Source: a virus. Taken from it: a stretch of 64,000 nucleotides of DNA. The stretch lies in the IMG/VR virus record IMGVR_UViG_3300030060_005695; one strand, 5' to 3'. The notes beneath the pieces are model-generated. The model made no database searches, had not been told where the DNA came from, and was given only the letters and a program-made list of their open reading frames with translations. Made by a program: the position numbers and the translations under genes. Positions 17,686-48,255 of the stretch are shown one piece after another (positions within the stretch are counted from its first letter, which is position 1; the number at the start of each line of letters is the position of its first letter).

Positions 17686-17748
17686 ATAACTAGAGTTTAT
17701 TTATAGAGTAAGTCGTTTATGATTATATTTATTGTAAACGACTTTTTT

Positions 17749-18534
17749 ATGCGTATAATAATCACAGAAAACCAATATACTAAACTTGTAGAACAAGTTG
17801 GTGTTAGTTGTGTACCTACTGGAGAAACAGAATTTAACGAGGTAGATGTCTCTTTTTATGACATGGTAAGAAATGGTAGTATATTAAATTATGGTGATTA
17901 TGATTTAGATAAAACACACCCAATATACGTTATTCAAAAAAAATTAGGTATAAGTAGAGATGGTTATTATGGTAAAGACATGTTGAAAGCATTATCTACT
18001 AAATTAAACATAGATTTATGTAAACAAATAAATAACAATATTCCATTAGGACCTAACGGTTTAAAAAAATTAGGACTTTATGTGAACATTCCTAAAGATG
18101 ATGAAGATTATATTTTAGCTTCTACTTTAGTTGGTGAAAATCAAAGAGCTGGAACAAAAGAACTAAATGCGATACTATCCACAATAAAAAACCGAGCAGA
18201 TAAATGCGGATATAGTATGAAAGACTCTGTATTAAAAGGAAAACAATACTCTACTTGGAACTACTTTAATAGATTAGATAATGAAGGTAAGTTTGAGGAG
18301 TTACACAATAGGATAACTAACCAAAAAGTAAAAGGTTTTGATAAAATGTTAAAAATAGTTGAAGGCTTTGGTGATGGGGATGTTATTAAAGTTAATCACT
18401 ACGTTAACCCTAGTATAGTAGATTTAAGTACGGGTAGTACTAGAACTATCGCTAAATCTTACAATAACAATAAAAAGTCAGCTAAGAAAATAGGTGACCA
18501 TATATTTTGGTGGGATAAAAGACATCCGTGTTAA
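17749..18534 (+). CDS. SleB/Hydrolase_2-like cell-wall hydrolase with N-terminal MRIIITENQYTKLVEQ tag
   Basis: LASTLVGE, IKNR, QYSTWN, HYVNP, IGDHIFW; TATTTAT at 17726-17732. Confidence 0.7.
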   Translation: MRIIITENQYTKLVEQVGVSCVPTGETEFNEVDVSFYDMVRNGSILNYGDYDLDKTHPIYVIQKKLGISRDGYYGKDMLKALSTKLNIDLCKQINNNIPLGPNGLKKLGLYVNIPKDDEDYILASTLVGENQRAGTKELNAILSTIKNRADKCGYSMKDSVLKGKQYSTWNYFNRLDNEGKFEELHNRITNQKVKGFDKMLKIVEGFGDGDVIKVNHYVNPSIVDLSTGSTRTIAKSYNNNKKSAKKIGDHIFWWDKRHPC

Positions 18535-18559
18535 TCAAATAAGTAGATATTTATATAAT

Positions 18560-20005
18560 ATGAAAATCGAGATAACAGCAAAACAATTAGAACTTATTAA
18601 TGAGTCACTTATAAATGAAGGTGGGATTAGAGACATTAATAAGTTAGCTCAAAGATACCCAAAGGCAGAAATATATTTTCACCAGGATTTAGATGGGGTG
18701 GTATCCGCTTTAGGGATGAAGAACTACTTAGAAAAATATGGTATAGAAGTTATCGACACCCATGTAATACAATATGGTGACAAAGAATTTTCAGTAAAAA
18801 AACCACAAGCTAGTGAAGATGTAATGCCAGTATTAGTAGATTTTGCACACGGGAAACCAATATTTAAAATCCATACAGACCACCACGATTCACAAGCAGG
18901 GGTAGAAGATGATACTGCAACACAATTTAGAGGAGCAAGGTCAAACGTAGAAACTATTTCACAAACTATAAGTCCTAGTGATATTTTTACGGATGAAGAT
19001 ATAATGATGATTAATACTGTAGATTCTGCGGATTATGCAAAACACGATATTGAACCAGAACAAGTAATGAATCTAATTAGAGATTTTGAATCTGGTGACC
19101 AGACTTACGAAAAAAGATGGATGTTAGGTCTTTTAACTAATAAATTATTATTAGCTTATAAAAATAAACCAGGATTCCTAGAACATCTAGTTATGAATTC
19201 TTCACCATCCTTGATGAATATCTACCAAAACATAACCTCATACGCAAAAGAAAAAGGTTTTGCTTCACCAGAAGAAATGGCACAAAATCAAGCAGAATAT
19301 ATAAAATCCCAACAAGAAAGTGATAATCTAAATTTAGATGGTAATATAATAGTACAATATGGAGGTGGTAGATTATTTAAACCAGGTTCCTATGATAGAT
19401 ACACACCATTCAAAATTTATCCTGACGCTGACTTTTTTGTGGTGGCGTGGCCAATGGGACTTGTACAAGCTTCGTGTAATCCATTCAAAAAAGACAGAGC
19501 TCTTAAAGGTGTTAACTTAGGTGATATAGCACAAGAAGTACTTAAAGAAGTGGAACCACAACTTAAAAAACACCAAGTACCAGTCTCTGTGATTAAAAGA
19601 ATAGGGGAGACAAAAGCAGAAGGAGAAAGTATTGGGTTTAAAACTTCAGACTTATTCGCTCTCTATAAAGACCACCTACAAAATATGCCATCAACAGATT
19701 CTAAATACTATGATATGGCGGTTAGTATAATTGACACACCATGGGACAAGTTGAGTGAAAAACAAAAAGCAGTTTTAGATAAGATAACTGTACCAGCTTG
19801 GGATGTTATACAAGCTAATAGTGGCGGTCACAAATGTATAACTAATATTAGTGGGTTAAATTTCTTTAGTAGAGCAACTAGACAACCAGAAGGACCTTAC
19901 AAGAAAAAATCAGACGCCAAACCAACAAGATATGTAGAATTTGTAAAATGGGTACAGAAAGAAATGGTTAAGAAAATTAAAGAAAATATAGACGCTAATC
20001 AGTAA
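18560..20005 (+). CDS. DHH-family phosphoesterase with N-terminal tag
   Basis: HQDLDG, LVDFAH, TDHHD, GGH; TATTTATA at 18548-18555 before ATG 18560. Confidence 0.8.
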   Translation: MKIEITAKQLELINESLINEGGIRDINKLAQRYPKAEIYFHQDLDGVVSALGMKNYLEKYGIEVIDTHVIQYGDKEFSVKKPQASEDVMPVLVDFAHGKPIFKIHTDHHDSQAGVEDDTATQFRGARSNVETISQTISPSDIFTDEDIMMINTVDSADYAKHDIEPEQVMNLIRDFESGDQTYEKRWMLGLLTNKLLLAYKNKPGFLEHLVMNSSPSLMNIYQNITSYAKEKGFASPEEMAQNQAEYIKSQQESDNLNLDGNIIVQYGGGRLFKPGSYDRYTPFKIYPDADFFVVAWPMGLVQASCNPFKKDRALKGVNLGDIAQEVLKEVEPQLKKHQVPVSVIKRIGETKAEGESIGFKTSDLFALYKDHLQNMPSTDSKYYDMAVSIIDTPWDKLSEKQKAVLDKITVPAWDVIQANSGGHKCITNISGLNFFSRATRQPEGPYKKKSDAKPTRYVEFVKWVQKEMVKKIKENIDANQ

Positions 20006-20330
20006 ATTCTAATAAATCACCCTCACTTACATTAAATTGTCCAGAAGGTATCTCCAAAACCTTATCAGCAATGCCTTGATAGGATTCACAATTATTTTCA
20101 TAACAGGGTGGACAATTATAATGAACTTTAGTAACTTTATTATTAATGATAAAGATTATATCTAAAGAAATTAAACAATCTTTCATCCAGAAAGAACGTT
20201 CTGAAATCTCAGGAAAAACAAAAAGCATTCCACCATCAAGAAATTCCCTACCCATCATACCAGTACTAATAGCATTAGGGGTAGACATAATCTCTAGTGG
20301 GAGGACTTTATTATCTAAAATAACATTCAT
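19995..20330 (-). CDS. DUF192 family protein
   Basis: GMMGR...GMLFVF...FWMKDC..SLDIIFI...VLEI. Confidence 0.85.
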   Translation of the reverse strand: MNVILDNKVLPLEIMSTPNAISTGMMGREFLDGGMLFVFPEISERSFWMKDCLISLDIIFIINNKVTKVHYNCPPCYENNCESYQGIADKVLEIPSGQFNVSEGDLLEFTD

Positions 20331-20347
20331 ATTATTATAAATATAAA

Positions 20348-22809: not shown

Positions 22810-22835
22810 TTACTTTATATTTATAGTAGATAACT

Positions 22836-24461
22836 ATGAATATGTTAAACGAACAGGTAAATAAAAGAGTTGTATACGAGGATGATAAATATGAACTCGT
22901 ATTACCTTATAATATTGCATCTATTTGTTCTATAGCACCCCAATGGTGTAAGGACGAAAAAATTAAAGAAGCTACCGTAAACGCGTTTAAAAGTGGTGGG
23001 GTAACTTATATAATCATAGAAAAGGATAAAAATAAAGTAGGGATAGTACACGACACCAAAAGTAAAATACCTTTAAGATTTAGTGGGGAATACGCTCTTT
23101 TTGACCCGCTCAGAGACCACGCGTTAAATCCAAGTTGGTACCAGAAAAAAGACGCAAAAAAATTCTTTAGTGACAAACCCACACTAATAGAAAAACTAAA
23201 CATACCTTACTCCCTCAAAGAAAGATTAAAATTTGAAATGCCTTTTACTGAAAAGGAAATGAGACAATTTTCAGAAAAGAATGATTTTGCAAAAGCAGTT
23301 TATGATGAGATAAGAGGTGAGAAAGGACAAAATCTGGACTGGGAAAAGTTTGAAGGTAACGACAACACTACAGTATCTACAGATAGTTGGTTTTTTGATA
23401 ATATGAATGACGATGAAATAGGAATCATGCCTGATGGAGAAGGAATCTTAATAATCGCCAACGACGAAACTTTTAAAGATAAGTTTTTAGATTTAAGTCA
23501 GGATGATGACTGGGCATATAACGCAGCTATGGGTTACCGTGGTTATTATGATGATTGTGAGGAAATGGATACAGAGGAATTAAACTATATGAACGGTTAT
23601 TTAACCCCAGAAAACCGTGGACGATTACAAAATCTTAGAGAGTTAGTGGGAGAACCAAAATTTACAGAACAGGAATTACAACACGATGAAGGAACCGTAT
23701 ATGATTTCCTTGAGAAGTATTTTCCAATAGAAGCAGATGATATGGCTGATGAGTGGTTAAGTAGTTTAGGTTGTGCAGTTTGGAGAAGTAGAGCACAAGC
23801 TACTAAAGACGAGATAGATGAAGCAAAAGTATTTGACTGGGATGAAAGAGGTAGAAACACCGAAATGTATATAACATGGAAACAATTATTACAAGTTATT
23901 GGTACAAAGAGTGTTGAAAATTTTGCTGATTTGGGTGAAATAGAACTAAATGGGTTACCTAATTTATATGATGGTTGGTATGATGCGTGGGATGTAGATG
24001 ATGAAGGAAGTAATGATATGAATGCAGCTTTTACAAAAATGTTGGATGATATAGAAGAAGATGGGGTAGACACGATTATGGATAGAGTTAAAAGAAGAGA
24101 AAGTTTTCTTAAAACACTTGGTGAACTAGGATTTAAAAAAGCAACAGGATGGAATCCTGGATTCTCAAACAGAACAGATGTACATAATTGGAAAACTAGT
24201 GATGGTAAGTCTACTGTATTGGCAAATATAACAGTCGGAAATTATGACTCCAAAGACGAAACAGTATCATTTAAGGATGAAAGTCACAACTCAACCAATA
24301 CGGATAGAATGGACGATGTTAAATTAGAAGATTTCCTAGAGTACGTAACCAACCCAAGACTACCATTTAATCAAGAAGAAAAAGAAGTTAACGAAAACTA
24401 TACAAATAGAATTATTAATAATATTATTAATAATATAATCACAGAAAATGTACGTAAGTAA
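22836..24461 (+). CDS. Large acidic hypothetical protein, putative virion cargo
   Basis: MNMLNEQ start; VVYEDDKYELVLP...WC domain resembling part of ORF 25719; TATTTATA at 22818-22825. Confidence 0.7.
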   Translation: MNMLNEQVNKRVVYEDDKYELVLPYNIASICSIAPQWCKDEKIKEATVNAFKSGGVTYIIIEKDKNKVGIVHDTKSKIPLRFSGEYALFDPLRDHALNPSWYQKKDAKKFFSDKPTLIEKLNIPYSLKERLKFEMPFTEKEMRQFSEKNDFAKAVYDEIRGEKGQNLDWEKFEGNDNTTVSTDSWFFDNMNDDEIGIMPDGEGILIIANDETFKDKFLDLSQDDDWAYNAAMGYRGYYDDCEEMDTEELNYMNGYLTPENRGRLQNLRELVGEPKFTEQELQHDEGTVYDFLEKYFPIEADDMADEWLSSLGCAVWRSRAQATKDEIDEAKVFDWDERGRNTEMYITWKQLLQVIGTKSVENFADLGEIELNGLPNLYDGWYDAWDVDDEGSNDMNAAFTKMLDDIEEDGVDTIMDRVKRRESFLKTLGELGFKKATGWNPGFSNRTDVHNWKTSDGKSTVLANITVGNYDSKDETVSFKDESHNSTNTDRMDDVKLEDFLEYVTNPRLPFNQEEKEVNENYTNRIINNIINNIITENVRK

Positions 24462-25674: not shown

Positions 25675-25718
25675 ATTCTTTCTAATTAACATATATTTAT
25701 ATAAAAACAGATTTAAAC

Positions 25719-27131
25719 ATGGCCTTTAACTTTAAGGAAATCTTAACTAATTTAATTATTGAGGACAGTCGTTACGATGTTCTCATGAAAAAGTACACCC
25801 AACCAAAAAAGAAAGGTAAGAAAGCTCAAATGGATAAGGATTTATTAATAGACCTTATGCAAGCAGACCCGACCACTAAAGGTGATTTTGATGGAGATAG
25901 AGATACTAGAGATGTTACTAAAGTAGGAGCTTATACTAACTGGTTAATTAAACAATGGTTAGGCTTACAACAAAAGGCAGACGCAGAACACGACTATGGG
26001 ACACCAGAATGGACTCAAAAGTTGGAGAGACTACAAGAATTATTTATGGAAGACCTTTATAAGGTAACTGAAGACTTAGAAAAATTCCATTACCTAAAGA
26101 AAACAAAAAAATATAAAGGACAAAAAGATATAGGACAAATAAAATCCGTAGATGACTTATATGACAATGTAAAAGACTATCAAGTCAGTAAGGATGAGAT
26201 AACTAAGACTAAAGCAGAAAGACTAAGAGATGATGTTGATAAAGTTTATGAAGATGATAAATGGTTAATCTTAGTACCTAAATCTAAAGAAGCTTCGTGT
26301 CATTACGGTGGTGGACAAACTAGATGGTGTACGGCCTCTAAGAGTAGTAATTATTATGACCACTATTCTAAACAAGGTCCTCTATATATGATGATGTATA
26401 AGGAAGATGCCGGTAAAGCCCCAGCTGAAAATAGAAGTCATCAGTTCCACTTTGAAAGTAATTCATTTTATAATGCAGAGGATAGAAGTATTGATTTAGG
26501 TTCGTTCTTTGCAACATATCCTGAACTTAAACCATTCTTTAAAGAAAAGTTTGCAACGTTTATGGGTAAAGATTATGGTAAACAAGTACAATTAAGATAC
26601 CCTAATGATACAGCATCTAAATATATTTCTATTTATGGTTTTGATGAGTTCTTTGAAGCTTTACCAGAAACCTTAGAGAGACTAGATATTGAGATATCAA
26701 ATAATAGAGGGTACGGTCAAAAAGACCAAAAAACACCAGCTTTTAGATTACCAGATGATATTACAAGATTTAAAAATTTAGAAATGTTACACATTGAAGG
26801 TATGTTAAGTGAGTTACCAGATGAGGTAGGTGAGTTAAAAAACTTACAATTTATATCCATACCTAACAACCCTAATTTAGTGCACATTCCAGAAGCGATA
26901 GCTAATCTACCAAACCTAGAAGTACTAAATGTTAAAAATAATAGTAAAATGGTTATACCACACAAAATTATGGAAAAAGCAGCTTGTGGTGAACTAGTAC
27001 TAATTAAAACACAACCCGACCAGTCCTTTGGAGTTGGAGAATGTCAAAATGGACAAAAAGTAGTAGTTAATTACGTTGATAAACAGGGTGATTACAAGAC
27101 TGCTGAAGAAGCAGAAGCTTCGATACAGTAA
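25719..27131 (+). CDS. Leucine-rich-repeat protein with N-terminal tag and central YGxxxxxWC domain
   Basis: C-terminal LRRs (LPDEVGELKNLQFISI, IPEAIANLPNLEVLNV); TATTTATA at 25694-25701. Confidence 0.75.
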   Translation: MAFNFKEILTNLIIEDSRYDVLMKKYTQPKKKGKKAQMDKDLLIDLMQADPTTKGDFDGDRDTRDVTKVGAYTNWLIKQWLGLQQKADAEHDYGTPEWTQKLERLQELFMEDLYKVTEDLEKFHYLKKTKKYKGQKDIGQIKSVDDLYDNVKDYQVSKDEITKTKAERLRDDVDKVYEDDKWLILVPKSKEASCHYGGGQTRWCTASKSSNYYDHYSKQGPLYMMMYKEDAGKAPAENRSHQFHFESNSFYNAEDRSIDLGSFFATYPELKPFFKEKFATFMGKDYGKQVQLRYPNDTASKYISIYGFDEFFEALPETLERLDIEISNNRGYGQKDQKTPAFRLPDDITRFKNLEMLHIEGMLSELPDEVGELKNLQFISIPNNPNLVHIPEAIANLPNLEVLNVKNNSKMVIPHKIMEKAACGELVLIKTQPDQSFGVGECQNGQKVVVNYVDKQGDYKTAEEAEASIQ

Positions 27132-32432: not shown

Positions 32433-33338
32433 ATGAACTTAGGATATGCTTGTATAAACATGACACTTGGGGGACAGAAACCCAAGATTACTACTAATAG
32501 GTCTATGATTAAAAAAACCTTTATAGATAGGGGTATAGACTATGCGGGAGAACTTTCCCTACTTAATTCCAGAGATTTATGTGAAATAGTAAAATGGAAT
32601 GTAGAGAACGGAATTAATTTTTTTAGAATCTCTTCCGATATTTTTCCTTGGGCGTCAGAATACAACATAGAAGACCTACCTCAATATCAAAGAATCAAGA
32701 CTGTTCTTTCTAGTTGTGGTAATTACGCTAGAGATAATGGTGTTAGATTAACTTCACACCCAGGACCATTTAATGTCCTGGTTTCACCCCGAGAACATGT
32801 GGTACAAAATACAATAACGGACCTAACCAACCACGGTAAGGTATTTGATTTACTGGGACTAGATAGAACACCATACAATAAAATCAATATACATTGTAAT
32901 GGTGTATATGGGGATAAACAATCTGCTCTAGATAGATTCTGTAAAAACTTTGAGTTACTTCCTGAATCAGTACAGACACGTCTTACAGTTGAAAATGATG
33001 ATAAGGCAACTATGTACTCAGTAAAAGACTTAATGTATATACATGAACGTATTGGTATTCCTATTGTATTTGATTATCACCACCATAAGTTTTGTACGGG
33101 TGACATGACAGAACAAGAAGCCCTTGAGTTAGCCATCTCTACATGGCCTAAAGGTATAACACCAGTGGTGCATTATTCAGAGTCCAAAGCTTTACACGAA
33201 AGTAATGATAAATTAAAACCACAAGCACACTCAGACTACATAAATGACCTACCAAATACATATGGTAATAAGGTAGATATTATGGTGGAATCTAAAGCAA
33301 AAGAATTGTCTATTTTACCTCACATAAATTTAATATAG
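32433..33338 (+). CDS. uvsE: UV-damage endonuclease
   Basis: LGYACIN, FFRISS, HPGPF, INIH, VENDD, FDYHHH, HYSE, AHSD, MVESKAKE. Confidence 0.93.
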   Translation: MNLGYACINMTLGGQKPKITTNRSMIKKTFIDRGIDYAGELSLLNSRDLCEIVKWNVENGINFFRISSDIFPWASEYNIEDLPQYQRIKTVLSSCGNYARDNGVRLTSHPGPFNVLVSPREHVVQNTITDLTNHGKVFDLLGLDRTPYNKINIHCNGVYGDKQSALDRFCKNFELLPESVQTRLTVENDDKATMYSVKDLMYIHERIGIPIVFDYHHHKFCTGDMTEQEALELAISTWPKGITPVVHYSESKALHESNDKLKPQAHSDYINDLPNTYGNKVDIMVESKAKELSILPHINLI

Positions 33339-34067: not shown

Positions 34068-35372
34068 ATGAACGAAAGCAAAGATTTAAAAAGAATACAA
34101 GAATTTGTGGATAAACTAAAAGCCACCAACTCAACTAATGATAAGATTGATATTATTAAAGAGTACAAGGATGACTATCTGATTAACCAGGTTTTAAAAT
34201 ACACATATTCACCATTCAAACAATTTCATTTAACTAGTACAACAGTAAAGAAGAATAAAAAATTAGAATCTAAAATAGGTTATAATGATTTGTTTTATTT
34301 GTTGGACGCATTAAGTAAACGTACGATAACAGGACATGACGCAATCCAGTATACCAAAGGTTATATTGCTGCTATGGAGGATTGGCAAAAAGATTTAATA
34401 TTCTGTATTTTAGATAAAAACTTAAAGACAAGAACGGGAGCGGACCTAATCAACAAAGCAATTCCAAAATGTGTCCCTACTTTCAAGGTAGCACTAGCTA
34501 ACTCTTATGATAAACAAAAGGGTAAAGTTGATTTTAATAAACAAACTTGGTTCGCCTCCCAAAAGTTAGACGGTGTAAGATGTTTAGCGATAGTAGATGA
34601 AAATGGTAAATGTAATTTCTATTCAAGACAAGGTAAAACATTTGATACTTTAGATACCCTTAGAAAAGAAATAGAGAGTTTAGGACTAACTAATGTTGTA
34701 TTTGATGGTGAGGTATGTATTGTGGATGATAATGGTGTAGAAGACTTCCAAGGGATTATGAAGGAAATTAAAAGAAAAGACCACACCATTGAAAATCCTA
34801 AATATAAAATATTTGATTATCTTACACTAGAAGAATTTGACACACAAACCAGTACAAGAAATTTAAGTTTAAGATTAAGTACTTGTGTTAGACCTAAACT
34901 AAATTGTATAGAAATGTTAGAACAATGGAAAGTAGAGTCAGATGAACACTTCCAAGAGTTGGCAGAACTAGCAACTAAAAATAACTGGGAAGGTTTAATG
35001 TTACGTAAAGATTGTGAGTACAAAGGAAAAAGAAGTAATGACTTATTAAAAGTTAAGAAATTCTTTGATGAAGAATATGTGGTAAAAGGTGTTGAAGTTG
35101 CGGTTCACAGAATTATTGTAGATGGTTTAGAAGTAGAAGAAGAAATGTTAAGTAACGTTATAATAGAACATAAGGGTTGTGAAGTAAGAGTAGGTTCTGG
35201 TTTTGACCATGAAGAAAGAAGAATGTATTATGTTCCTGATTTTCACCCAGACAGTTTAGTCGGAAAAACAATTACAGTACAATACTTTGAAGAAACCCTT
35301 AACCAGGATGGTTGTCACTCATTAAGATTTCCCGTTGTAAAACATGTGTATGATGGGGAGAGAACTACTTAA
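34068..35372 (+). CDS. ATP-dependent DNA ligase
   Basis: KLDGVR, FDGE, EGLMLR, LLKVK, VGSG, SLRFP. Confidence 0.95.
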   Translation: MNESKDLKRIQEFVDKLKATNSTNDKIDIIKEYKDDYLINQVLKYTYSPFKQFHLTSTTVKKNKKLESKIGYNDLFYLLDALSKRTITGHDAIQYTKGYIAAMEDWQKDLIFCILDKNLKTRTGADLINKAIPKCVPTFKVALANSYDKQKGKVDFNKQTWFASQKLDGVRCLAIVDENGKCNFYSRQGKTFDTLDTLRKEIESLGLTNVVFDGEVCIVDDNGVEDFQGIMKEIKRKDHTIENPKYKIFDYLTLEEFDTQTSTRNLSLRLSTCVRPKLNCIEMLEQWKVESDEHFQELAELATKNNWEGLMLRKDCEYKGKRSNDLLKVKKFFDEEYVVKGVEVAVHRIIVDGLEVEEEMLSNVIIEHKGCEVRVGSGFDHEERRMYYVPDFHPDSLVGKTITVQYFEETLNQDGCHSLRFPVVKHVYDGERTT

Positions 35373-36258
35373 AGTTACCCAAGAAAGGCCACAATTCATC
35401 ATCAATAAGAACCTTAGTAACCGAAGGTAACAACCAAGGAGAAACGTTTGATAATTTCATACCATTAGTTAACCATAAAAATACTTGTTGATTTTTAAGT
35501 GCTGACACCTGAGCTTCACCAAATGTACCAGCTCCAGCTGTACCATCAAAGTTAATGAGATTAGTATCACATACTTGTAACATATATAAATCTTGGTGTA
35601 CAATTTGTTCCCTTATTTTTTCTTGAAATATTTTAAATTCTTCTGGTGTTAATTCGTTAGATTTCCATTTTTTAAACATGTCTTTAAATTCTGTATCAGC
35701 TTCTCTAACAGTTTCTGCTCTCATAGGATTTAAAAGTACTGGTGGAGTCAACCCTTCATAACTTAGTTCCCCTGTTGTTACAAGAGTAAGTAGTCTTTCA
35801 TCCTTTACAACATGACTAGGACCATAAAAATCTTCTACCTGAGTCCTCCAAGAAACAGCGTCTTTTGCAAAATCAATTCCCCCACCAAGATACATAGCCT
35901 TAGGGGTGAATATACCAACAGTAGAAGTAGGGTCCATCACATCTAAAATATCAATGGTCTGTTTAATTTCATCCATTGATGCGTTAATTAAAAAATTAGT
36001 TGCTTTATCAGTGATATAACGTTTAACCCACTTTAATAGTTTTCCTATTGTAGTTTTCGCTTTAATTTCTGGTATACCTTTATAGGATATTTGTTCGTCT
36101 ATGTCCGTATATTCTTCTTCAGAATTCATACTAACTGTATCGGTTAAATCATCACGTAGTTTTTGACGAGCATCTAAAGGCATCATCAATAGTTCATCTT
36201 GAATGTCTGTGATATCTACAACTTCTTCTTTTAAAATTTTTCTAATTAAGTTTTTCAT
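35365..36258 (-). CDS. Nucleoside 2-deoxyribosyltransferase/Rcl-like N-glycosidase with N-terminal MKNLIRKILKEE tag
   Basis: YLGGGI...SWR...LNP...DLYMLQVCD...GTFGE...VFLW pattern. Confidence 0.7.
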   Translation of the reverse strand: MKNLIRKILKEEVVDITDIQDELLMMPLDARQKLRDDLTDTVSMNSEEEYTDIDEQISYKGIPEIKAKTTIGKLLKWVKRYITDKATNFLINASMDEIKQTIDILDVMDPTSTVGIFTPKAMYLGGGIDFAKDAVSWRTQVEDFYGPSHVVKDERLLTLVTTGELSYEGLTPPVLLNPMRAETVREADTEFKDMFKKWKSNELTPEEFKIFQEKIREQIVHQDLYMLQVCDTNLINFDGTAGAGTFGEAQVSALKNQQVFLWLTNGMKLSNVSPWLLPSVTKVLIDDELWPFLGNFK

Positions 36259-37064
36259 TAATAATCTGTATTAGCTTTTTCACCTTTCATTATTTCTAAT
36301 CCTGCAGAAGTACCTATTCGGGAAGCTCCAGCATCAACCATTTTTTCAAGGTCTTCTCTACTATAAATACCCCCAGAAGCTTTAACTTTTAATGGACCTG
36401 CATTTATAGACATTATTGATACGTCATCTACAGTTGCCCCACCAGGACCACCATCTTCAGGTTTATAAAATCCTGTGGAAGTTTTTACAAAAACATCACT
36501 TGCTTTTTGTTCCCCAACTGTTTCTATAACGACATCTCTAATTAAACTTGTTAATTCAGCAACTTGGTCTGAAGTTAACGCTGCAGACTCTATAATCCAT
36601 TTCACCACTCTACCCTCATCTATCCCTATAGATGTACCTTCACTAACCTCATTCTTAACTTTATCCAAATCACCATTTTTAAAAGCATTGTAGTCAACAA
36701 CAAAATCTAATTCATCAACATTATTGTTAATAGCTTCCATAGCTTCACTTATTTTTTCACTAATACTAGCATCCCCACCAGGGAAACCAATAACAGTACC
36801 AACTAGAAGGTCTGAATCATACTCTTTAATCATTTGGTCAGCTAAACTAACAAACTCAGGTCTTATCATAACTAACTTCATATTGTGGTCTATAGCATCT
36901 TGAATAGTTTTGGAGACTAATCTAGTAGTCTCATCATCACTAATACCTGCTTGGTCCGAGGTTTTTAAATAAGTAGAGTCTATATATTGACCTATATTAT
37001 CCCCTTCTGTTAGTCTAATTAGTTCTTTAATCCTTCGGATGTCTTCTGTAATCATATCTTTCAT
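36258..37064 (-). CDS. deoC: Deoxyribose-phosphate aldolase with N-terminal extension
   Basis: TVIGFP, ELDFV, KWIIE, FVKTSTGF (Schiff-base Lys), VKASGGI, RIGTS. Confidence 0.93.
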   Translation of the reverse strand: MKDMITEDIRRIKELIRLTEGDNIGQYIDSTYLKTSDQAGISDDETTRLVSKTIQDAIDHNMKLVMIRPEFVSLADQMIKEYDSDLLVGTVIGFPGGDASISEKISEAMEAINNNVDELDFVVDYNAFKNGDLDKVKNEVSEGTSIGIDEGRVVKWIIESAALTSDQVAELTSLIRDVVIETVGEQKASDVFVKTSTGFYKPEDGGPGGATVDDVSIMSINAGPLKVKASGGIYSREDLEKMVDAGASRIGTSAGLEIMKGEKANTDY

Positions 37065-37126
37065 TATTAATAAATATATTTAAATCCTTTAATATTATCT
37101 AGGACTATTTATAATAAAAAAGAATT

Positions 37127-38870: not shown

Positions 38871-39647
38871 ATGAAAAATAACAATTCACTCACAAGAACC
38901 GAACTACTAGAATTAGTCCCATCCGCTTTCGCAAGTCAACAATCCCCAAAAGTTTCTAACAAGTACACTTTTATCTCTACTGCAACAGTATTAGATGATA
39001 TGGAAAAATTAGGTTGGGAACCATTTAACGCATCACAAAGAAAATCTAGAAAAAGTCAAGATGCTATGTTTACAAAACATATGATAAGATTACGTAATGG
39101 CGATGTGGGTAAAATAGGAGACTCAATTCCAGAAGTAGTATTAACAAACTCACACGATGGTAGAAATGCTTTTACACTACACGCGGGACTCTTTAGAATG
39201 GTATGTTCTAATGGATTGGTTATTGCGGACACTACGTTTGAACAGGTAAAAATTAAACACCAATGGTATAGTTTTGATGAAATTAGAAAAATTATGGATG
39301 GTATGTTAGAAGTGGTACCTAAAGTTATCACACAAGTACAAGAATTAAACTCAGTAACTTTAAGTGATGACCAACAGATAGATTTCGCTTCACAAGCTTT
39401 ACTTACACGTTACCCAAAAGGTAATGAAAATTTAAACGTAGAAGATTTATTATCCCCAATAAGACAAGGAGATAGAGGTGACCAACTATGGAAAATATTT
39501 AATGTAGTCCAAGAAAAACTTATAAAAGGTGGCTTAGTATTTAATGACAAAAAAGAAAAAATGCAAAAACTAAGACCAATCGTCAATATTGACAGAAGAA
39601 TCGAAGTTAACAAAAAACTATGGGAACTTACCGAAGCTTACGTCTAA
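38871..39647 (+). CDS. DUF932/DUF945 family protein
   Basis: KHMIRLR, LTNSHDG, GLFRMVCSNGLV, LWKIFNVVQE; promoter TTG-N20-TATCTTTG (38809-38839). Confidence 0.85.
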   Translation: MKNNNSLTRTELLELVPSAFASQQSPKVSNKYTFISTATVLDDMEKLGWEPFNASQRKSRKSQDAMFTKHMIRLRNGDVGKIGDSIPEVVLTNSHDGRNAFTLHAGLFRMVCSNGLVIADTTFEQVKIKHQWYSFDEIRKIMDGMLEVVPKVITQVQELNSVTLSDDQQIDFASQALLTRYPKGNENLNVEDLLSPIRQGDRGDQLWKIFNVVQEKLIKGGLVFNDKKEKMQKLRPIVNIDRRIEVNKKLWELTEAYV

Positions 39648-39648
39648 T

Positions 39649-41355
39649 ATGGAAACCATAGTATTACATAAATTATCACATGAAGAGTATTGGACCCAAG
39701 AATACGAAAAGTTCAATACTCTTCAACCTGGAAGTAGAACCCATAAAAATACAAACTTATTTAATGTAGGTTCCAGAGATAATCCAGATTTAGTCGTTTT
39801 TAAATTTAAAAAACAACACACTAACCTTAATGATGAAGAGTGGAAAAAATTATGTTTTTCACCATATGTCCACACTAAACTAAAAAGAATTACTGTAGTA
39901 GTAGAAAAAGTGGTAGACGAGGGTCTAACTAAAAAAGTTAGGATTAGTAGATATTTTACAGTTAAAGGTAGAAAATGTGGTGCAAAATATTTTTGGAAGC
40001 AAAGAGAAGTAGTTCATGTAACATTTGATTTGGTTAATAATAATGTGTATAAAACCACAACACAGTATATCGGTAGAAAAAAGAATACTACTGTAATGAA
40101 GAACCCATTTAAATACTGGAAAAAAGACCACTTCAACCTAGGAGAAATATTATTTGACATAGACTTAAGTGTAAATATGCCACTCAACAACCTAAATAAG
40201 TTTATTGAGAATCCACAATATTATGATAAAAGAGATAAAATAAGTGTGGGTTTATTTAAATGTAAAAAATCACTTATTAATGAGTTATGTGCGAAAGATT
40301 TTAAATTTAACACAAAACTAAACAAAACTGCAAATATTCTAGAACTATCTAGTATGTGGTTTACAAAGGTAAGAGGTATTAAAACACCAGATAAATGGAT
40401 GCATTATTTTACACATAACTATCCAGGTATTAAACAATTAAAAAAGAAAGGAAACAATCTAATACAAACAATATTAAAAGAAGAGGGGATATACTCTAAG
40501 TACGCGATAAAGGTATTCAATACGTATACCGATATTAAACTACCATCATATCAGATAATGTTAGAAGTTTTAGGTATACACCTATTAAGGGAATTAAACC
40601 CTGAACTACTTACCCAAAAATATAATATGGGATGGCAGATGAATATGGAACTAACCCCCAAAGAAAAAAGAAACTTTGTATCAATATTAAACTCCTTGTT
40701 AACTGATTATAATTTTGAACCACAAAATGTAAATAATGTTATTTCTGATTTAGTTTCAGACCACCTAGGAAGATTAAAATTTAGATTACAAACAGAGGGG
40801 TTAAACCCTAAACTTAAAGCCACTAACTATGACGAGTTTGTTGAAGAACACCAAGAATGGACAAATTTAGTGGATGAGATTAATAATACCACATCAATAA
40901 CTCATATCTATGATAAAGATTTTTTAAACCACATACAACAACCTATTACTATTGGTAATAAAACAATGACACCAGTAGTTTTAAGGGACACTTATGAATA
41001 TAGAGATGAAAGTAGTGTACAAAGTAATTGTGTTAAGACTTATATTGAACATAGAGATACTTGTATTATTTCATTAAGAGATGGTAAGGGTAACAGAATA
41101 ACTAATGAATTTGTCCCTAGAGGTAAAAATAAAATAATGAGTAACGTACAAAGTAGGGCTAGATTCAATCAAACAGTCTCAGAGGATTTACAACCATTTG
41201 TTAATGTGTTAAATTTAAAAATAAAAGAAACATCGAAAGAAGGGTTATATAAAAAGACTCAGGTGATTAAAGAATGTAAATTTACAGGTAGATTAGAAAA
41301 TGTAGAAAAAAGAGGTAGATACAACTACCGATTTGAGGATGATTTACCATTTTAA
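39649..41355 (+). CDS. PcfJ-like domain protein
   Basis: C-terminal ESSVQSNCVKTY...IISLR...QSRARFNQ; ends DDLPF. Confidence 0.7.
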   Translation: METIVLHKLSHEEYWTQEYEKFNTLQPGSRTHKNTNLFNVGSRDNPDLVVFKFKKQHTNLNDEEWKKLCFSPYVHTKLKRITVVVEKVVDEGLTKKVRISRYFTVKGRKCGAKYFWKQREVVHVTFDLVNNNVYKTTTQYIGRKKNTTVMKNPFKYWKKDHFNLGEILFDIDLSVNMPLNNLNKFIENPQYYDKRDKISVGLFKCKKSLINELCAKDFKFNTKLNKTANILELSSMWFTKVRGIKTPDKWMHYFTHNYPGIKQLKKKGNNLIQTILKEEGIYSKYAIKVFNTYTDIKLPSYQIMLEVLGIHLLRELNPELLTQKYNMGWQMNMELTPKEKRNFVSILNSLLTDYNFEPQNVNNVISDLVSDHLGRLKFRLQTEGLNPKLKATNYDEFVEEHQEWTNLVDEINNTTSITHIYDKDFLNHIQQPITIGNKTMTPVVLRDTYEYRDESSVQSNCVKTYIEHRDTCIISLRDGKGNRITNEFVPRGKNKIMSNVQSRARFNQTVSEDLQPFVNVLNLKIKETSKEGLYKKTQVIKECKFTGRLENVEKRGRYNYRFEDDLPF

Positions 41356-41363
41356 TAAAAAAT

Positions 41364-42416
41364 ATGAAAGAAGAAAAAATACAATATTATGAAGGTGCCT
41401 ACGCGGACGAATTCCCAATAGGACCATACTTTAGAGACCGGTTTAACGTGGTTCCTAGTAGTTTAAGATATGATTATTCGTTTAAGTATAAAGAACTGAT
41501 TAATTATTTAACTAAAAACCAATACTTAGAAAATTTAGCAACCTATGAGATTGTTAGTGATAAAAATAACGATGGTACGACTAAAATATTTTCCTCTAAA
41601 CAACATCAAAAATTTTTAGTTAGGGTAGAAAATGTTAAGGAAGAAAAAGAAGGTTGGATGTCAATATATTATACTAATAGAAGTACAATAGATACCTTGT
41701 TAGAGGATGTTGAAGAGTTTAGAAGTAGTTCCTCTAATAAAAAAGTAGGGTTGATAGTAAAAGACGAATACGGACTTACACTCCAAAAGTTCGATATCAG
41801 TGGTAAAGAGAAGTTAAGTATTGATAAAAATTATAATAAGGGGTTTAAGAAAATCTCAAAAAAGATAGTTAGTAAATTAAATGAAAAAGACGGTAAAGGT
41901 ATCATTTTACTTCACGGTAAACCCGGTACAGGAAAAACAACATATATTCGTCATTTAACTAAACTCATAAATAAAGAAGTTATATTTTTACCCAACAACA
42001 TGGTAGATATGTTAGCTACACCAGAATTTGTACCTTTTATGATGAAACACCCAAACTCGGTCCTAATAATTGAAGACGCTGAAAAGGTAGTAAAAAATAG
42101 AAGTGGAAATGGTAATGAAACAGCGGTGTCTAACCTACTCAATTTAAGTGACGGTATTTTGGGTGATTGTTTAAAAACACAGATTGTAGCGACATTTAAT
42201 ACTGATAGACAATTAATTGACGAAGCTCTACTTAGAAAAGGTAGACTTATAGCAGAATATAAATTTGATAACTTATCTGTTGACAAAAGTAATAAATTAC
42301 TTAAATCATTAAATATAGACCATAAAACATCTCTACCGATGCCCTTATCTGATATATATAATTACGAGGATAACCTAGGTATCGATAATAATAAAAAAAC
42401 TAAAATAGGTTTTTAA
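41364..42416 (+). CDS. AAA+ ATPase
   Basis: GKPGTGKT, LIIEDAE, TFN, DEALLRKGRL. Confidence 0.9.
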   Translation: MKEEKIQYYEGAYADEFPIGPYFRDRFNVVPSSLRYDYSFKYKELINYLTKNQYLENLATYEIVSDKNNDGTTKIFSSKQHQKFLVRVENVKEEKEGWMSIYYTNRSTIDTLLEDVEEFRSSSSNKKVGLIVKDEYGLTLQKFDISGKEKLSIDKNYNKGFKKISKKIVSKLNEKDGKGIILLHGKPGTGKTTYIRHLTKLINKEVIFLPNNMVDMLATPEFVPFMMKHPNSVLIIEDAEKVVKNRSGNGNETAVSNLLNLSDGILGDCLKTQIVATFNTDRQLIDEALLRKGRLIAEYKFDNLSVDKSNKLLKSLNIDHKTSLPMPLSDIYNYEDNLGIDNNKKTKIGF

Positions 42417-42732: not shown

Positions 42733-44955
42733 ATGGAGAATTCAATCAATATAGATTTAGTTAATAGGTACATGAGAGATTTTTGGCCGAAGCATGGTCG
42801 TCAGTTATATAGTGACCTATACAATACTTATCACCCCTCAGCATATGGAGAAGGTTTCAGTAGACCCAGTGCTAACTTTGAACAGGCTTTAGATAATCTA
42901 GCAATAGGTGTTCATGACGGAAAAAAATTCGGACTCTTAGATTCTAGTGTAGCTTGGTCTGACATATTTAATTATGATGCTCTAGACCTAGATTCTGATG
43001 AAAAAGTAAAACGAGTAGTAGACGAAACCGGACTACCAACTCTCCATAACCAATTAGAAATATTAGATAATACAAACTTAGATTGGATTCACTCAATTCT
43101 ACTATTTGATGTATTATATGATATAGTAGAAGAATTTAGATGTTATTGTGGTGAAAATGGTATTGACCCTAATTGTGAAGGGAAATGTATGGACGAGTTT
43201 CCACCACCATATGGTTATTTATCTAGAGAATTGTATCCTAAAAGTGATGGTACCTTAAAACAAGATTACTACACACTCTATAACTTTATGAAAAAATTAG
43301 AAAGTGCTGGAGTCCCAGTAAGTAAAATTATAGAACCATATAAATTAACACCAATTAAATTAACTGATACTGGTACTTCTGACTACAATGAAGAAGGTGA
43401 ACCAAGAATACAAAACCCAATAGGAGATTGGGAAAATATGATGGATGCAGAGGCAATAGCTATGGACGCTCCTGATAGACTAGAGGAACAATACCCAGAA
43501 CAAGAACCTACAAAATCCATGTTCCAAAAAACCCTTTCAGACATGGGAGTACAACTACAATTCGTAGGAACATTTGGTTTTGGAATTAGTGGGATGTTTG
43601 GGTTCGTTAAAGAACTACTAGAAGGACAATACCCAACACTAAGTGAAGGAGAAATAATCTTAATATTTTTATCCGCATTATCTTACCTAAGTATTAATAC
43701 AATAAAAGATATCCAAAGACTGAGAGAAGAAGTTAAGGGTAGAGGTTTAGGGGGTTATGTAAATAAAGTAGTAGAATTATTAAAAGATTTTGAAAATATA
43801 TCATTAAAAGTTGTTGAGAAAGCTGGATTTACTGTATCATCTTTAGCTGAACTTTTGGGGTATACATTCTTACTGGTACCGATACTAGACATTACTAATA
43901 GAATTATAGATGAGGTTGGATTTGATATTACAGCATTATCTTCTTATTTAAAAGGTGCTTTGGTATCGGTGGGTATATTCTACATTAAAAATTTATTTAA
44001 CTCTTTAGTTTTAAGATTAAAAAAAATAAGAACAGATAAAATGATTGATGATGAACTTGAAGATGATGTTGTAGAAGAAGGTGTGTGGGTAGGAAAAGTA
44101 TTAAGTGAAAGATTTAAAGATAGTAGAGTCATTACAGATGAAAGAATAGGTAAATTAAGTTTGATTGATGAAAGTTTAAATAATAAAAACCTTAAATGGT
44201 TAGTGGAACAAGAAAACAAAATAAATTGGTTAAACATACCACTAACCAAATCACTAGAAAATGTTGATACTAAAAACCTAAATCAATATAAATCTATTTT
44301 AGAACTCAACATCATTAAAAACAGAAAACTTAATGAAAGTAAATTACATGAAGAAGTTTACATGGCTAGGATTGCAGAAAAAGCAACTACCGATGTCGTT
44401 AAAGATATTTTTGAAGTAGTAAAACTTTTTGAAGGTGGTGATGAGATAGTTTTGTTACCGGACTATTATAGTGATATTGACGGTGATGAGTACGAATACG
44501 GAGAACTTAAGTTTAATCTAGAGTTAAATATTTTAGAAAATCCAGAAGAAGACAATTTTACTGTAGACGCGTACATGGGAGGAGAGTTCGACGATACTAT
44601 ATATGTGGATATATCACTATCCCCAAACTTCAACGAAAAACACTATGAAAGTTTATATATTGTATTATCCGAATATGTAAGGCATGAAATAGAACATATC
44701 CTCCAAGAACTCGACCCAGAAAGACCAGATTTACCGGATGAAGACTTAACGCAAAAAAGTTTAAATTTAACACCTTTTGAGTACTACACTCAAGACTATG
44801 AGTTAGGTGCACAAAAAGCAGGTTTTGAAAGAAGAGCTAAAATGGAGGATAAATCGGTAGAAGATGTAGTACGTGACTATATTGAATATAGACAACACAT
44901 AGATAAGTTGAGTGATTATGAAAAACAAGAATTAATTAGTAGATTAACTACCTAA
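42733..44955 (+). CDS. Multidomain protein: N-terminal domain, hydrophobic central domain, C-terminal HExxH domain
   Basis: RHEIEH...YELGA; TATTTATA at 42721-42728. Confidence 0.65.
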   Translation: MENSINIDLVNRYMRDFWPKHGRQLYSDLYNTYHPSAYGEGFSRPSANFEQALDNLAIGVHDGKKFGLLDSSVAWSDIFNYDALDLDSDEKVKRVVDETGLPTLHNQLEILDNTNLDWIHSILLFDVLYDIVEEFRCYCGENGIDPNCEGKCMDEFPPPYGYLSRELYPKSDGTLKQDYYTLYNFMKKLESAGVPVSKIIEPYKLTPIKLTDTGTSDYNEEGEPRIQNPIGDWENMMDAEAIAMDAPDRLEEQYPEQEPTKSMFQKTLSDMGVQLQFVGTFGFGISGMFGFVKELLEGQYPTLSEGEIILIFLSALSYLSINTIKDIQRLREEVKGRGLGGYVNKVVELLKDFENISLKVVEKAGFTVSSLAELLGYTFLLVPILDITNRIIDEVGFDITALSSYLKGALVSVGIFYIKNLFNSLVLRLKKIRTDKMIDDELEDDVVEEGVWVGKVLSERFKDSRVITDERIGKLSLIDESLNNKNLKWLVEQENKINWLNIPLTKSLENVDTKNLNQYKSILELNIIKNRKLNESKLHEEVYMARIAEKATTDVVKDIFEVVKLFEGGDEIVLLPDYYSDIDGDEYEYGELKFNLELNILENPEEDNFTVDAYMGGEFDDTIYVDISLSPNFNEKHYESLYIVLSEYVRHEIEHILQELDPERPDLPDEDLTQKSLNLTPFEYYTQDYELGAQKAGFERRAKMEDKSVEDVVRDYIEYRQHIDKLSDYEKQELISRLTT

Positions 44956-45140
44956 TCCATTTCATCTAGATATTGTTGACGATATCTAGCTTTTTGTAAT
45001 TGTAATCTTTTTCTTTGAGATTTTTTGGTAAAATGTTTTCCATTACGTAATTTGAAAAGTTGTTTAGTTAGTTTAACTTTTCTCCTCATTATTTTTAGAG
45101 CACGGTCCACATTTCCTTTTTTTACTTCTACTATTAGCAT
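44952..45140 (-). CDS. rpsU: Ribosomal protein bS21
   Basis: MLIVEVKKGNVDRALK..RRKV...HFTKKSQRKR. Confidence 0.85.
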   Translation of the reverse strand: MLIVEVKKGNVDRALKIMRRKVKLTKQLFKLRNGKHFTKKSQRKRLQLQKARYRQQYLDEMD

Positions 45141-45166: not shown

Positions 45167-45814
45167 TCACTTTAAACCTATAACCTCATCAATAATACCA
45201 TAATCTAGAGATTCTGAAGCAGTTAACCACTTATCCCTAGTAGAGTCTTCCATTACTTGTTTTGGGTCTTTATCACAATACCCCCCTAAAAGTTCGAACA
45301 ATATATCGTTAGTTTTTTCCCATTCTTTCATACTAATTCTAGCGTCCTGGATATTACCCACAGCACCACCAGAACTTTGATGTAACATGGTTTTACTAAA
45401 TCTTAATGAAGACCTTTTACCTTTAGTACCAGCTCCTAGAAGTACTGACCCCATACTTGCAGCCATACCCGTATTAACTGTAGCTATATCACATTTTACA
45501 TAATCCATTACATCTACAATTCCTAGTCCAGATTTTACACTACCACCAGGTGTGTCCACATGTAATGTAATATCATCCATTCCTATAGAATCTAAAAACA
45601 TTAATTGAGCTTGTACAATAGTACTCATCCTATCATTTACTGGACCAGCACACCATATAATTCTTTCCATCATTAACCTATCGAATACACTCATCGATAC
45701 AGCTCTCATTTCTCTTTCTTCTATAACCATAGGAGTCATAGAGTTCTTGTAATCATAAAGTGTGGTAGAGCTAACACCAAAGTCACTTTTTACGTATTTT
45801 TCAAATTCAGTCAT
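45167..45814 (-). CDS. clpP: ClpP protease subunit
   Basis: SVFDRLMMERII, TPGGSV, AASMG, MLHQ, RDKWL, YGIID. Confidence 0.95.
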   Translation of the reverse strand: MTEFEKYVKSDFGVSSTTLYDYKNSMTPMVIEEREMRAVSMSVFDRLMMERIIWCAGPVNDRMSTIVQAQLMFLDSIGMDDITLHVDTPGGSVKSGLGIVDVMDYVKCDIATVNTGMAASMGSVLLGAGTKGKRSSLRFSKTMLHQSSGGAVGNIQDARISMKEWEKTNDILFELLGGYCDKDPKQVMEDSTRDKWLTASESLDYGIIDEVIGLK

Positions 45815-46980: not shown

Positions 46981-47013
46981 CTTTTTAGTTTTTAATTTTT
47001 ATTTTATTATTAC

Positions 47014-47103
47014 TTATACAGTACAAATTACATGTACCATAATACCTATTGATAGTATGGTCATCACTAGTAAACCCCATGATTTTTCTGTCCAGTTTTT
47101 CAT
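47014..47103 (-). CDS. 29-aa membrane peptide
   Basis: MKNWTEKSWGLLVMTILSIGIMVHVICTV; minus-strand TATTTAT at 47112-47118. Confidence 0.4.
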   Translation of the reverse strand: MKNWTEKSWGLLVMTILSIGIMVHVICTV

Positions 47104-47109
47104 CTTATT

Positions 47110-48228
47110 TTATAAATAGTCCCACAATAACTCTTGGTACTGATTTTTTACTTCTTCTTCATCATAAGGGTAGTTATCTACACTAGGACAAAGACGATTA
47201 TAATCGTACTCATCTAGAAGATTTAGAAAATCCTCAGGACTATCTATATCATGTGCATGTCTAGTTATTACAGTTCTAGCCAAATCAGTTACATCAAAGG
47301 ACTTAAAGGGAACTTCACGTTTTTTCTCTTCTCTTTGTCCTGTTTCAGGATTTTTCACCCAGTTATAAACCGGAGCGTAACCTTGTTTTATCGGTGGACC
47401 CAATAACTCTTCAAGGGCATCATTATAGTCCTCATAATACTGATTAATAATAGCATCATTATATGCTCTACTATAAGCATGTCCTATCTCAATTTCTAAA
47501 TCAGCTAACTCAGGAGTGTTACCAATAAGAACAGCTAAATTATATCTAGTACTTTCATTGTCCGGAAGAAAACCATTCATAAAACGAGGGGTTATAATCA
47601 CTTTACCATTATCCTCTCTAACCTGGTCAAACTCTTCTCTCCAAGCATCTACTTCTTGATTTTGAAATTCTATTCCTATATGTCTAACTAACTTAATATA
47701 ATTTTCTGGTGATAACATTTCTATTAAATCTTCTAATTTCTCATCTATATCATAAGGTTCCCACTCCAAACCTTCTTCACTGAATATTTGTTCAGCAACA
47801 TATCTACAATCATCACCATTATAATTTGAACCACCAAATAATTTGTGTTCCTCACCATCTAATAATTCTAATATAATTCGGTCTTTATCGTAACTAAGAT
47901 TTGAAATTTCCTCTATATAAGGTTGATGAACGTATATGTCTAGTAAATCATTATCTAACATTCCCCGTCTCCATCTATTCATACCCCCTAAAGCGTCAAT
48001 AACGTGGGTCATAGGTTGTTCATCCCAAGGCCAGGTATAACTTATATGTCTAATAAAATCTTCCCCTTTACCCATCTTTTCCAAAGCCTTATAAATTTCA
48101 TGTAAATCACCACCAAACATTTTTGTTATTGGCCATAGTGATTCAAAGTCCTCACTCTCGAAAACTTTAACATACCAAGGAGTAGTTTGTTCTAAAATAA
48201 TATTATGTAAATTGTTAAATAATTTCAT
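47110..48228 (-). CDS. Acidic hypothetical protein with N-terminal MKLFNNLHNIILEQ tag
   Basis: ORF; minus-strand TATTTAT at 48237-48243. Confidence 0.7.
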   Translation of the reverse strand: MKLFNNLHNIILEQTTPWYVKVFESEDFESLWPITKMFGGDLHEIYKALEKMGKGEDFIRHISYTWPWDEQPMTHVIDALGGMNRWRRGMLDNDLLDIYVHQPYIEEISNLSYDKDRIILELLDGEEHKLFGGSNYNGDDCRYVAEQIFSEEGLEWEPYDIDEKLEDLIEMLSPENYIKLVRHIGIEFQNQEVDAWREEFDQVREDNGKVIITPRFMNGFLPDNESTRYNLAVLIGNTPELADLEIEIGHAYSRAYNDAIINQYYEDYNDALEELLGPPIKQGYAPVYNWVKNPETGQREEKKREVPFKSFDVTDLARTVITRHAHDIDSPEDFLNLLDEYDYNRLCPSVDNYPYDEEEVKNQYQELLWDYL

Positions 48229-48255
48229 TACAACATATAAATATTTGGCAAAAAG

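Follow-up and report, generated by a model that had tools for sequence, protein, structure and literature searches.

Portable N-terminal leader families on unrelated proteins of a T4-type jumbo phage lineage: candidate capsid-targeting sequences

Introduction

Why do unrelated proteins of one phage begin with similar short peptides that end in [LI]-x-E? The question is raised by a 64 kb stretch of viral DNA with a G+C content of about 30% (IMG/VR record IMGVR_UViG_3300030060_005695; the whole stretch analyzed is called the window below). The initial annotation had proposed that at least seven unrelated proteins of the window share one portable N-terminal tag linked to one promoter motif, TATTTAT, and that this tag recruits captured enzymes into the phage head for injection. 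All seven N-termini were found at the starts given for them. Six of the seven genes have TATTTAT 5–18 nt upstream, while the seventh (start 36258, minus strand) overlaps the stop codon of deoC by one base. Here, N-terminal leader peptides of this kind are described as several families, and their possible function in the phage head is weighed against other roles.

Judged from its sequence, the window appears to be a piece of the genome of an uncultured marine T4-type jumbo phage, and its host is probably a member of the Bacteroidota; for the lineage, marine Flavobacteriia are the probable hosts. A megablast search of the window against the phage collection gave no near match. Marine origin is suggested since homologues of the deoxyribose-phosphate aldolase DeoC encoded in the window come largely from marine assemblies, including Tara. 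In the literature searched, a leader system of this kind is not described for Bacteroidota or marine T4-type jumbo phages.

Related genomes were obtained by an IMG/VR scan with the DHH-like protein of the window, which yielded 21 related loci with 55–98% identity, several of them on contigs of 150–298 kb. Two relatives were analyzed whole, namely the IMG/VR contigs G002 (210,568 bp) and G003 (297,623 bp, CheckV 93% complete). G002 has homologues for 36 of the 84 open reading frames (ORFs) of the window, with a mean identity of 63%, and G003 for 53 of the 84, with a mean identity of 54%.

Leader families

N-terminal 12-mers of proteins of at least 80 residues were compared within each contig, with internal 12-mers as control. 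In G003, 30 N-terminal pairs scored 30 or more as compared to 2 internal pairs; the respective numbers for G002 were 15 and 5. Some of the N-terminal pairs were true signal peptides and a few were paralogues; the others formed five leader families that recur (classes A to E). These leaders are charged and amphipathic, comprise 12–26 residues (about 11–26 with the window members) and end in [LIV]-x-E. Identification as Sec or lipoprotein signal peptides was rejected, since the leaders lack the uncharged hydrophobic core of about 10–15 residues that follows a basic N-terminus; the true signal peptides (window starts 6292, 29824 and 31574) cluster apart from them.

Leader profiles were trained and iterated on members from G002 and G003 alone, with the window sequences excluded. 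The initial annotation had suggested a profile scan of this kind, and it recovered four of the seven named window proteins, all at the first Met: those starting at 18560 (class A, independent E-value (iE) 2.7e-3), 17749 (class E, 2.3e-5), 36258 on the minus strand (class B, 8e-4) and 48228 on the minus strand (class C, 3.1e-3). All matches in the window begin at the first Met, with no internal match there, and the significant matches in the window, G002 and G003 taken together are nearly all N-terminal. The class D profile, built from 3–4 G002 seeds, did not match the DeoC of the window. As a control for start-codon bias, profiles lacking the Met were used; they gave eight non-training matches with iE ≤0.1, of which five begin in the first 30 residues (9.6% expected), which lends thin support. 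By a conservative count, each related contig has 18–19 leader genes, i.e., about 6–9% of its genes.

Some copies were found away from the N-terminus. A class D copy lies inside a 945-residue G002 protein (residues 304–317; L048:3234-6071 (-)), a tandem second class A copy occupies residues 32–52 of a 100-residue G003 protein (G003 279416-279718 (-)), and one G003 protein has a C-terminal leader copy by profile match.

The leaders are portable. When they were removed, 45 leader proteins fell into 40 cargo homology groups, the two-member groups being cross-genome orthologs only, and class A leaders alone occur on 17 cargo groups. Conversely, one cargo may have different leaders: orthologs of the DHH-like protein start with a 20-residue class A leader, a short form of 6–8 residues or a class C-like leader, and the junction ..E|[SG]G-I-R is kept in 15 of 15 distinct ortholog N-termini. 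At the 17749 locus, the window protein and its positional counterpart in G002 have in common only the first 27 residues or so, which contain the leader, whereas the cargo of the latter differs and is a phage lysozyme. The G003 ortholog of DeoC (L025:6690-7790 (-)) has in place of the leader an unrelated N-terminal domain of 108 residues that ends in L-K-E, which may be an internal processing site. Most of the cargo matches no known family; several cell-wall enzymes are among the recognizable cargo, namely lysozymes, proteins with peptidoglycan-binding domains and an M23 peptidase that also has a tail-lysozyme domain.

That portable leader families exist is close to certain. The proposal of one portable tag holds as regards portability on unrelated proteins, but the leaders belong to at least five families of different length. 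The motif itself was of no use as a detector. The pattern [LI]-x-E occurs within the first 25 residues of 33 of the 84 window ORFs (39%), which is not above chance, and shows no association with TATTTAT there (8/17 vs. 24/67, p=0.41); in the full contigs G002 and G003 such a link is modest (odds ratio (OR) 2.2–2.6, p ~0.01). The motif within the first 25 residues was therefore rejected as a cargo detector. For detection, [LI]-x-E alone is useless, while leader profiles in combination with ortholog conservation work.

The DeoC leader

In the window, deoC encodes a leader of 20 residues (37005..37064 (-)) with [LI]-x-E sites ending at E7, E14 and E20, followed by the aldolase cargo (36258..37004 (-)), which matches TIGR00126 with 143.8 bits (cut-off 117.3). 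A TATTTAT box (37070..37076 (-)) lies 5 nt upstream of the ATG at 37064. A single-protein IMG/VR scan with DeoC gave one relative only. The leader is conserved in 120 protein clusters at 68–99% identity, and DeoC was placed in class D because this set of N-termini bridges to the class D consensus. In an alignment of 37 sequences, E7 and E20 are invariant.

The initial annotation had described the tags as additions to cellular protein folds, and for DeoC this was confirmed. The alignment of DeoC to TIGR00126 starts at residue 33 and that to solved aldolases at residues 22–25, in both cases after the leader. In an AlphaFold2 (AF2) model built from the 37 sequences, with a mean predicted local distance difference test score (pLDDT) of 89, the barrel has a pLDDT above 90 and is confident from about residue 28. 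A separate helix spans residues 2–19 with a pLDDT of 45–60, and a break at residues 20–23 coincides with the L-T-E|G-D junction. For DeoC, a cargo of known fold, the leader was thus shown to be appended to the aldolase rather than to belong to it.

Head proteins and protease of the relatives

Both G002 and G003 encode a protein of the Peptidase_S77 family (PF03420), to which gp21 of phage T4 belongs, above the Pfam cut-off (92.4 and 90.4 bits, respectively). The lineage therefore has a prohead protease of the kind that the initial annotation had invoked. In both contigs, this protease lies within the head module, with the terminase, portal and core genes on one side and those of the scaffold and a gp23-type capsid protein on the other. 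The capsid protein matches 2,526 phage records and the solved structure of T4 gp23, and its nearest cultured relative is that of Flavobacterium phage immuto, with 36% identity.

The N-terminus of the relatives' protease is a short segment ending in I-L-E or L-L-E. Their capsid protein starts with M-G-A-L-L-E, and a further motif, L-I-N-E|A, immediately precedes the part alignable with mature T4 gp23. The relatives' portal, terminase, sheath, baseplate and tail-completion proteins lack a leader and are conserved in sequence from the start. The presence of the leader-type motif on protease and capsid protein, and its absence from portal, terminase and tail proteins, mirrors which T4 proteins are processed. 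Beside the relatives' head module, Hsp70-like and ClpB-like genes appear to be present, as read from the N-terminal sequences only.

Leader genes of the window

Besides deoC, six genes had been named as tagged. The first has a TATTTAT box (17726..17732 (+)) 16 nt upstream of its ATG at 17749 and a 15-residue class E leader ending in L-V-E (17749..17793 (+)). The start was settled by the class E match, which begins at 17749, the second in-frame Met, rather than at the upstream ATG at 17719. Its cargo (17794..18534 (+)) is weakly endolysin-like (phrog_938, E 5e-4) and has no match in Pfam or NCBIfam.

For the DHH-like gene, the box (18548..18554 (+)) lies 5 nt upstream of the ATG at 18560 and is kept in 18 of the 21 related loci. 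The class A leader of 20 residues (18560..18619 (+)) contains two I-N-E sites and is followed by G-G. Its cargo (18620..20005 (+)) is weakly assigned as a DHH-like phosphoesterase (Pfam DHH, E 1.3e-3, below the cut-off, from residue 38) and has no sequence match among solved structures.

The gene of the leucine-rich repeat (LRR) protein has its box (25694..25700 (+)) 18 nt upstream of the ATG at 25719, and 50 of 51 distinct orthologs have such a box upstream as well. The leader (25719..25763 (+)) has 15 residues, ends in I-I-E, is class B/C-like and was confirmed by ortholog conservation. Its cargo (25764..27131 (+)) consists of a conserved central domain and C-terminal leucine-rich repeats (LRR_14, E 4e-8, below the Pfam cut-offs). 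The family comprises 167 relatives, of which 80 were taken in and 53 distinct N-termini compared; [LIV]-x-E is found at the same position in 52 of these 53, even where the overall identity is as low as 34%. In G003, the ortholog belongs to class B (iE 5e-4).

The partner gene coupled to deoC encodes an 11-residue class B leader ending in L-K-E (36226..36258 (-)), and [IL][LI]-R-E is kept in 7 of 7 orthologs. Its cargo (35365..36225 (-)) has no Pfam or NCBIfam match; Atlas neighbors with Nuc_deoxyrib_tr and a language-model score of 0.84 provide a lead only, and the AF2 model was unusable (pLDDT 39.5).

A box at 48237..48243 (-) lies 8 nt upstream of the ATG at 48228 of a gene for a 372-aa protein (47110-48228). 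Its class C leader of 13 residues ends in I-L-E and is followed by T-T-P-W (48190..48228 (-)), and the G003 ortholog has kept both leader and T-T-P-W junction. No relative of this protein was found in a single-protein IMG/VR scan, and an alignment-seeded family scan led to G003 only.

The seventh candidate is a putative 6-residue tag ending in L-N-E (22836-22853 (+)), on a 541-aa protein that begins with MNMLNEQ, with a TATTTAT box (22818-22824 (+)) upstream of the ATG at 22836. M-N-x-L-x-E is kept in five relatives (34–42% identity), found in a search seeded with the same peptide, so that the tag is unproven. Thus, of the tags named initially, four were recovered by profile and those of the LRR protein and DeoC by orthologs, while that at 22836 is weakly supported. 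An extra candidate (7595..7684 (+)) consists of TATTTAT at 7595-7601 and the 23-residue N-terminus, ending in I-G-E, of a 316-aa protein at 7616; its G002 ortholog keeps TATTTAT and ..R-I-G-E|N-H, and no profile matched it.

Among the domain labels of the initial annotation, that of DeoC is solid and the leucine-rich repeats are real, whereas the DHH assignment is weak, 'SleB-like' goes back to one weak PHROG match and 'NDT-like' to the Atlas lead. Ligase, UvsE, GlnII, CysK and ClpP had been named as proteins without tag and box. Their identities as ligase, UvdE, glutamine synthetase, PALP/CysK and ClpP were confirmed, and the domains of UvdE, glutamine synthetase and CysK begin at residues 3–7, i.e., without N-terminal extension; the DNA ligase, however, has I-Q-E at residues 9–11.

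The TATTTAT box

In the window, 17 of 60 copies of TATTTAT lie in sense orientation 0–30 nt upstream of a start codon. Control heptamers of the same composition had 1–12 copies upstream of starts, and those not overlapping the box 1–5. The spacing between box and ATG is bimodal (4–6 nt and 11–20 nt), with 7 of the 17 window cases ending 4–6 nt before the ATG; boxes at 18548, 37070, 42721, 29812, 6667 and 1677 are among the examples. No conserved element was found further upstream of the boxes in the window. Should the box act as a -10-like element, late mRNAs of the genes with the short spacing would be leaderless or nearly so.

Leader genes are enriched behind the box. In G002 and G003, TATTTAT lies directly upstream of 19 of 37 leader genes as compared to 90 of 455 other genes (OR 4.3, p 4.6e-5), and in the window of three of four as compared to 14 of 80 (p 0.025). 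Leader genes without a box are often located downstream in the same transcription unit, e.g., the partner of deoC. The box also precedes the genes of a tail fibre, bS21, DnaJ and a DUF192 protein in the window, the terminase, prohead-core and protease genes in the relatives, and the terminase and portal genes in immuto. In view of its position before many genes without leaders, TATTTAT behaves like a general late-type promoter box of this lineage, for which it is a candidate by sequence, rather than a tag-specific signal. The proposed tie of the tag to one promoter motif was thus borne out as an enrichment, while the box proved to be general and is missing directly upstream of many leader genes of the relatives.

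Two of the genes behind the box have features of their own. An ORF of 4,082 residues (48849-61097 (+)), with TATTTAT 20 nt upstream, has a C-terminal Peptidase_S74 intramolecular chaperone domain and probably encodes a giant tail fibre. The phage-encoded ribosomal protein bS21 (44952-45140 (-); TIGR00030, 35.2 bits, cut-off 28.95) has TATTTAT 19 nt upstream. The UvdE gene (32433-33338 (+)) and the genes at 14388 and 21571 are preceded by TAnnTTTG-like boxes such as TATATTTG, which we take to be of the Bacteroidota housekeeping -7 type and which suggest a second, host-like promoter class. A sigma-70 family protein with regions 1.2, 2 and 4 (2728-3525 (+)) could read one of the phage promoter classes.

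Proposed function and comparison with known systems

In phage T4, a capsid-targeting sequence (CTS) is present on the internal proteins IPI, IPII, IPIII and Alt, while gp24 and other head proteins have short propeptides; gp21 removes both. The 10 N-terminal residues of IPIII, which form its CTS, are enough to bring foreign proteins into the prohead, and gp21 cuts them off after [LI]-x-E (PMC9026906, PMC5694885, PMC3012670). The protease gp21 itself carries such a site (LIE-9), and the CTS was proposed as the route by which T4-like phages recruit varied head proteins (PMC9026906).

The leaders of the window lineage are like the T4 CTS in being short N-terminal peptides on unrelated proteins, ending in [LI]-x-Glu and located outside the cargo fold, and the lineage shares with T4 a gp21-family protease, a gp23-type capsid protein and the motif at the protease N-terminus. 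They differ in forming at least five families, most of which are longer (up to about 26 residues), helical and often equipped with two or three [LI]-x-E sites. Moreover, their cargo includes recognizable enzymes (deoxyribose-phosphate aldolase and lysozymes), and the host is Bacteroidota-like. Class C leaders, which start with M-K-L-[FIY], may resemble the T4 CTS in sequence.

In the jumbo phages phiKZ, 201phi2-1 and SPN3US, 8–19 head proteins lose N-terminal propeptides after Glu, and the proteases gp175 and gp245 are related to gp21; a role of the propeptides in directing these proteins to the prohead has been suggested, and one propeptide may contain several cut sites (PMC5694885, PMC9026906). 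These phages resemble the window lineage in being jumbo phages and in having N-terminal peptides that end in Glu. They differ in that the motif is S/A/G-x-E and the propeptides mostly exceed 100 residues and are not shared by unrelated proteins. A long propeptide of this type was rejected for the window leaders, which have 11–26 residues and [LIV] two positions before the Glu and are shared by unrelated proteins.

A further match is EST35_0205 of Pseudomonas phage PA5oct, a protein whose central domain is homologous to residues 81–259 of the LRR protein (E 3e-8) and which starts with M-K-L-F and reaches L-Y-E at residue 11. It differs in that the identity is 26% over 38% of the protein only. 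Its record is annotated as 'structural protein, ESI-MS/MS'.

We consider it reasonably probable, by analogy with T4, that the leaders are an enlarged, multi-class version of the T4-type capsid-targeting sequence, which would serve in head loading and then be clipped off. Head loading is favored because the fixed Glu junction, the motif on protease and capsid protein, the cell-wall-enzyme cargo and the PA5oct match fit together. The steps of docking, cleavage, packaging and injection are inferred as follows. First, the leader would anchor its protein in the scaffold core while the prohead assembles. Second, the gp21-family prohead protease would cut after the Glu of the leader. Third, the cargo, once released, would remain in the head until it is injected along with the DNA. 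The cargo encoded in the window would then comprise the cell-wall-hydrolase-like, DHH-like and LRR proteins, the deoxyribose-phosphate aldolase with its coupled partner and the 372-aa protein. TATTTAT would time the leader genes together with the head and tail genes without being part of the tag.

Several points weigh against head loading. The window itself contains no head module, and the protease was seen in relatives only, which have a mean identity of 54–63%. The leader profiles gave no significant match in Flavobacterium phage immuto, the nearest cultured relative, of which about 150 of 160 kb were scanned. In a proteome rich in K, I, L and E, [LIV]-x-E is common, so that a leader ending in this motif is weak evidence by itself. 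A TATTTAT box directly upstream is missing from about half of the relatives' leader genes. Most leaders exceed the T4 CTS in length, and some cargo, e.g., the deoxyribose-phosphate aldolase, is odd for injection. Finally, a full-length ClpP (45167-45814 (-), E 2.6e-52) and a three-domain DnaJ (11100-12101 (+)) encoded in the window, and the apparent Hsp70 of the relatives, are possible alternative readers of an N-terminal helix.

The leaders could accordingly be real and portable and have another role, namely recruitment of DnaJ/Hsp70, tagging for degradation by ClpP together with a host unfoldase, oligomerization through the helix or incorporation elsewhere in the virion. This possibility deserves attention, although it appears less probable to us than head loading. 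Besides the ClpP and DnaJ genes of the window and the Hsp70-like gene that adjoins the relatives' head module, as read from sequence, it is in line with the character of the leaders as hydrophobic helices with basic flanks. It leaves unexplained the invariant Glu at the junction of leader and cargo, as well as the motif on protease and capsid protein and its absence from tail, portal and terminase proteins, and the swapping of leaders at a fixed junction fits a cleavage site better.

It is very improbable that the conserved feature is one of nucleic acid, i.e., that the peptide is incidental and the first codons of late genes are part of a promoter or initiation region for short-leader or leaderless mRNAs. 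The short spacing of 7 of the 17 window boxes and the AT-rich N-terminal coding regions would suit such a feature. In contrast, codon choice varies synonymously in the conserved Leu and Thr columns of the leaders, with Leu codons from both families (TTA and CTN), which argues that selection acts on the peptide. Furthermore, conservation is class-specific and extends over at least 20 residues, and box and leader often occur apart, since about half of the leader genes lack the box directly upstream and most genes with the box lack a leader.

Chance, by which a K/I/L/E/N-rich proteome would yield amphipathic [LI]-x-E N-termini and a common AT-rich heptamer would happen to lie upstream, is equally improbable and largely refuted: it accounts for the loose motif in 39% of the window ORFs and its missing link to TATTTAT there, but not for the excess of N-terminal over internal similarity, the matches of independently trained profiles at first Mets only in the window, the Glu kept across 53 (in detail 52 of 53), 15 and 37 orthologs of the LRR protein, the DHH-like protein and DeoC, respectively, or the box counts upstream of starts (17/60 vs. 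1–5 for non-overlapping controls) and in 50 of 51 LRR orthologs.

With the T4 CTS, a system of this kind is already known; the novelty lies in the presence of several leader families, their lengths, their number and the enzyme cargo, all within an uncultured marine lineage. Provided that the leaders function like that of T4, one could list from sequence the proteins that abundant uncultured marine jumbo phages carry into their hosts. Injected proteins act before phage gene expression and are thus prime candidates for counter-defence and takeover. Such leaders would also constitute a natural set of short tags with which large capsids could be loaded with foreign proteins. More speculatively, and in our opinion rather doubtfully, the leader classes could form a sorting code, in which docking to different core or scaffold partners sets copy number, position or ejection order of the cargo. 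A ready-made enzyme kit of cell-wall hydrolases, the deoxyribose-phosphate aldolase and its coupled partner, the DHH-like phosphoesterase and the LRR protein would then be delivered with the DNA. If so, the injected proteome of uncultured T4-type phages would be readable from sequence alone, as the initial annotation had proposed.

Other genes of the window

Three further loci of the window were noted. A protein with a DruA (Druantia defence) domain (12418-13593 (+), E 1.3e-25) is phage-encoded. A protein with DUF2828 and DUF7788/VWA domains (28112-29545 (+)) matches PHROG 850, 'RNA-binding protein', with E 2e-150 and was read as Ro60/TROVE-like. At 38871-42416 (+), a DUF932 protein, a PcfJ-like protein and an AAA/STAND-like ATPase are encoded in series, a composition that resembles a mobile-element or defence-related module.

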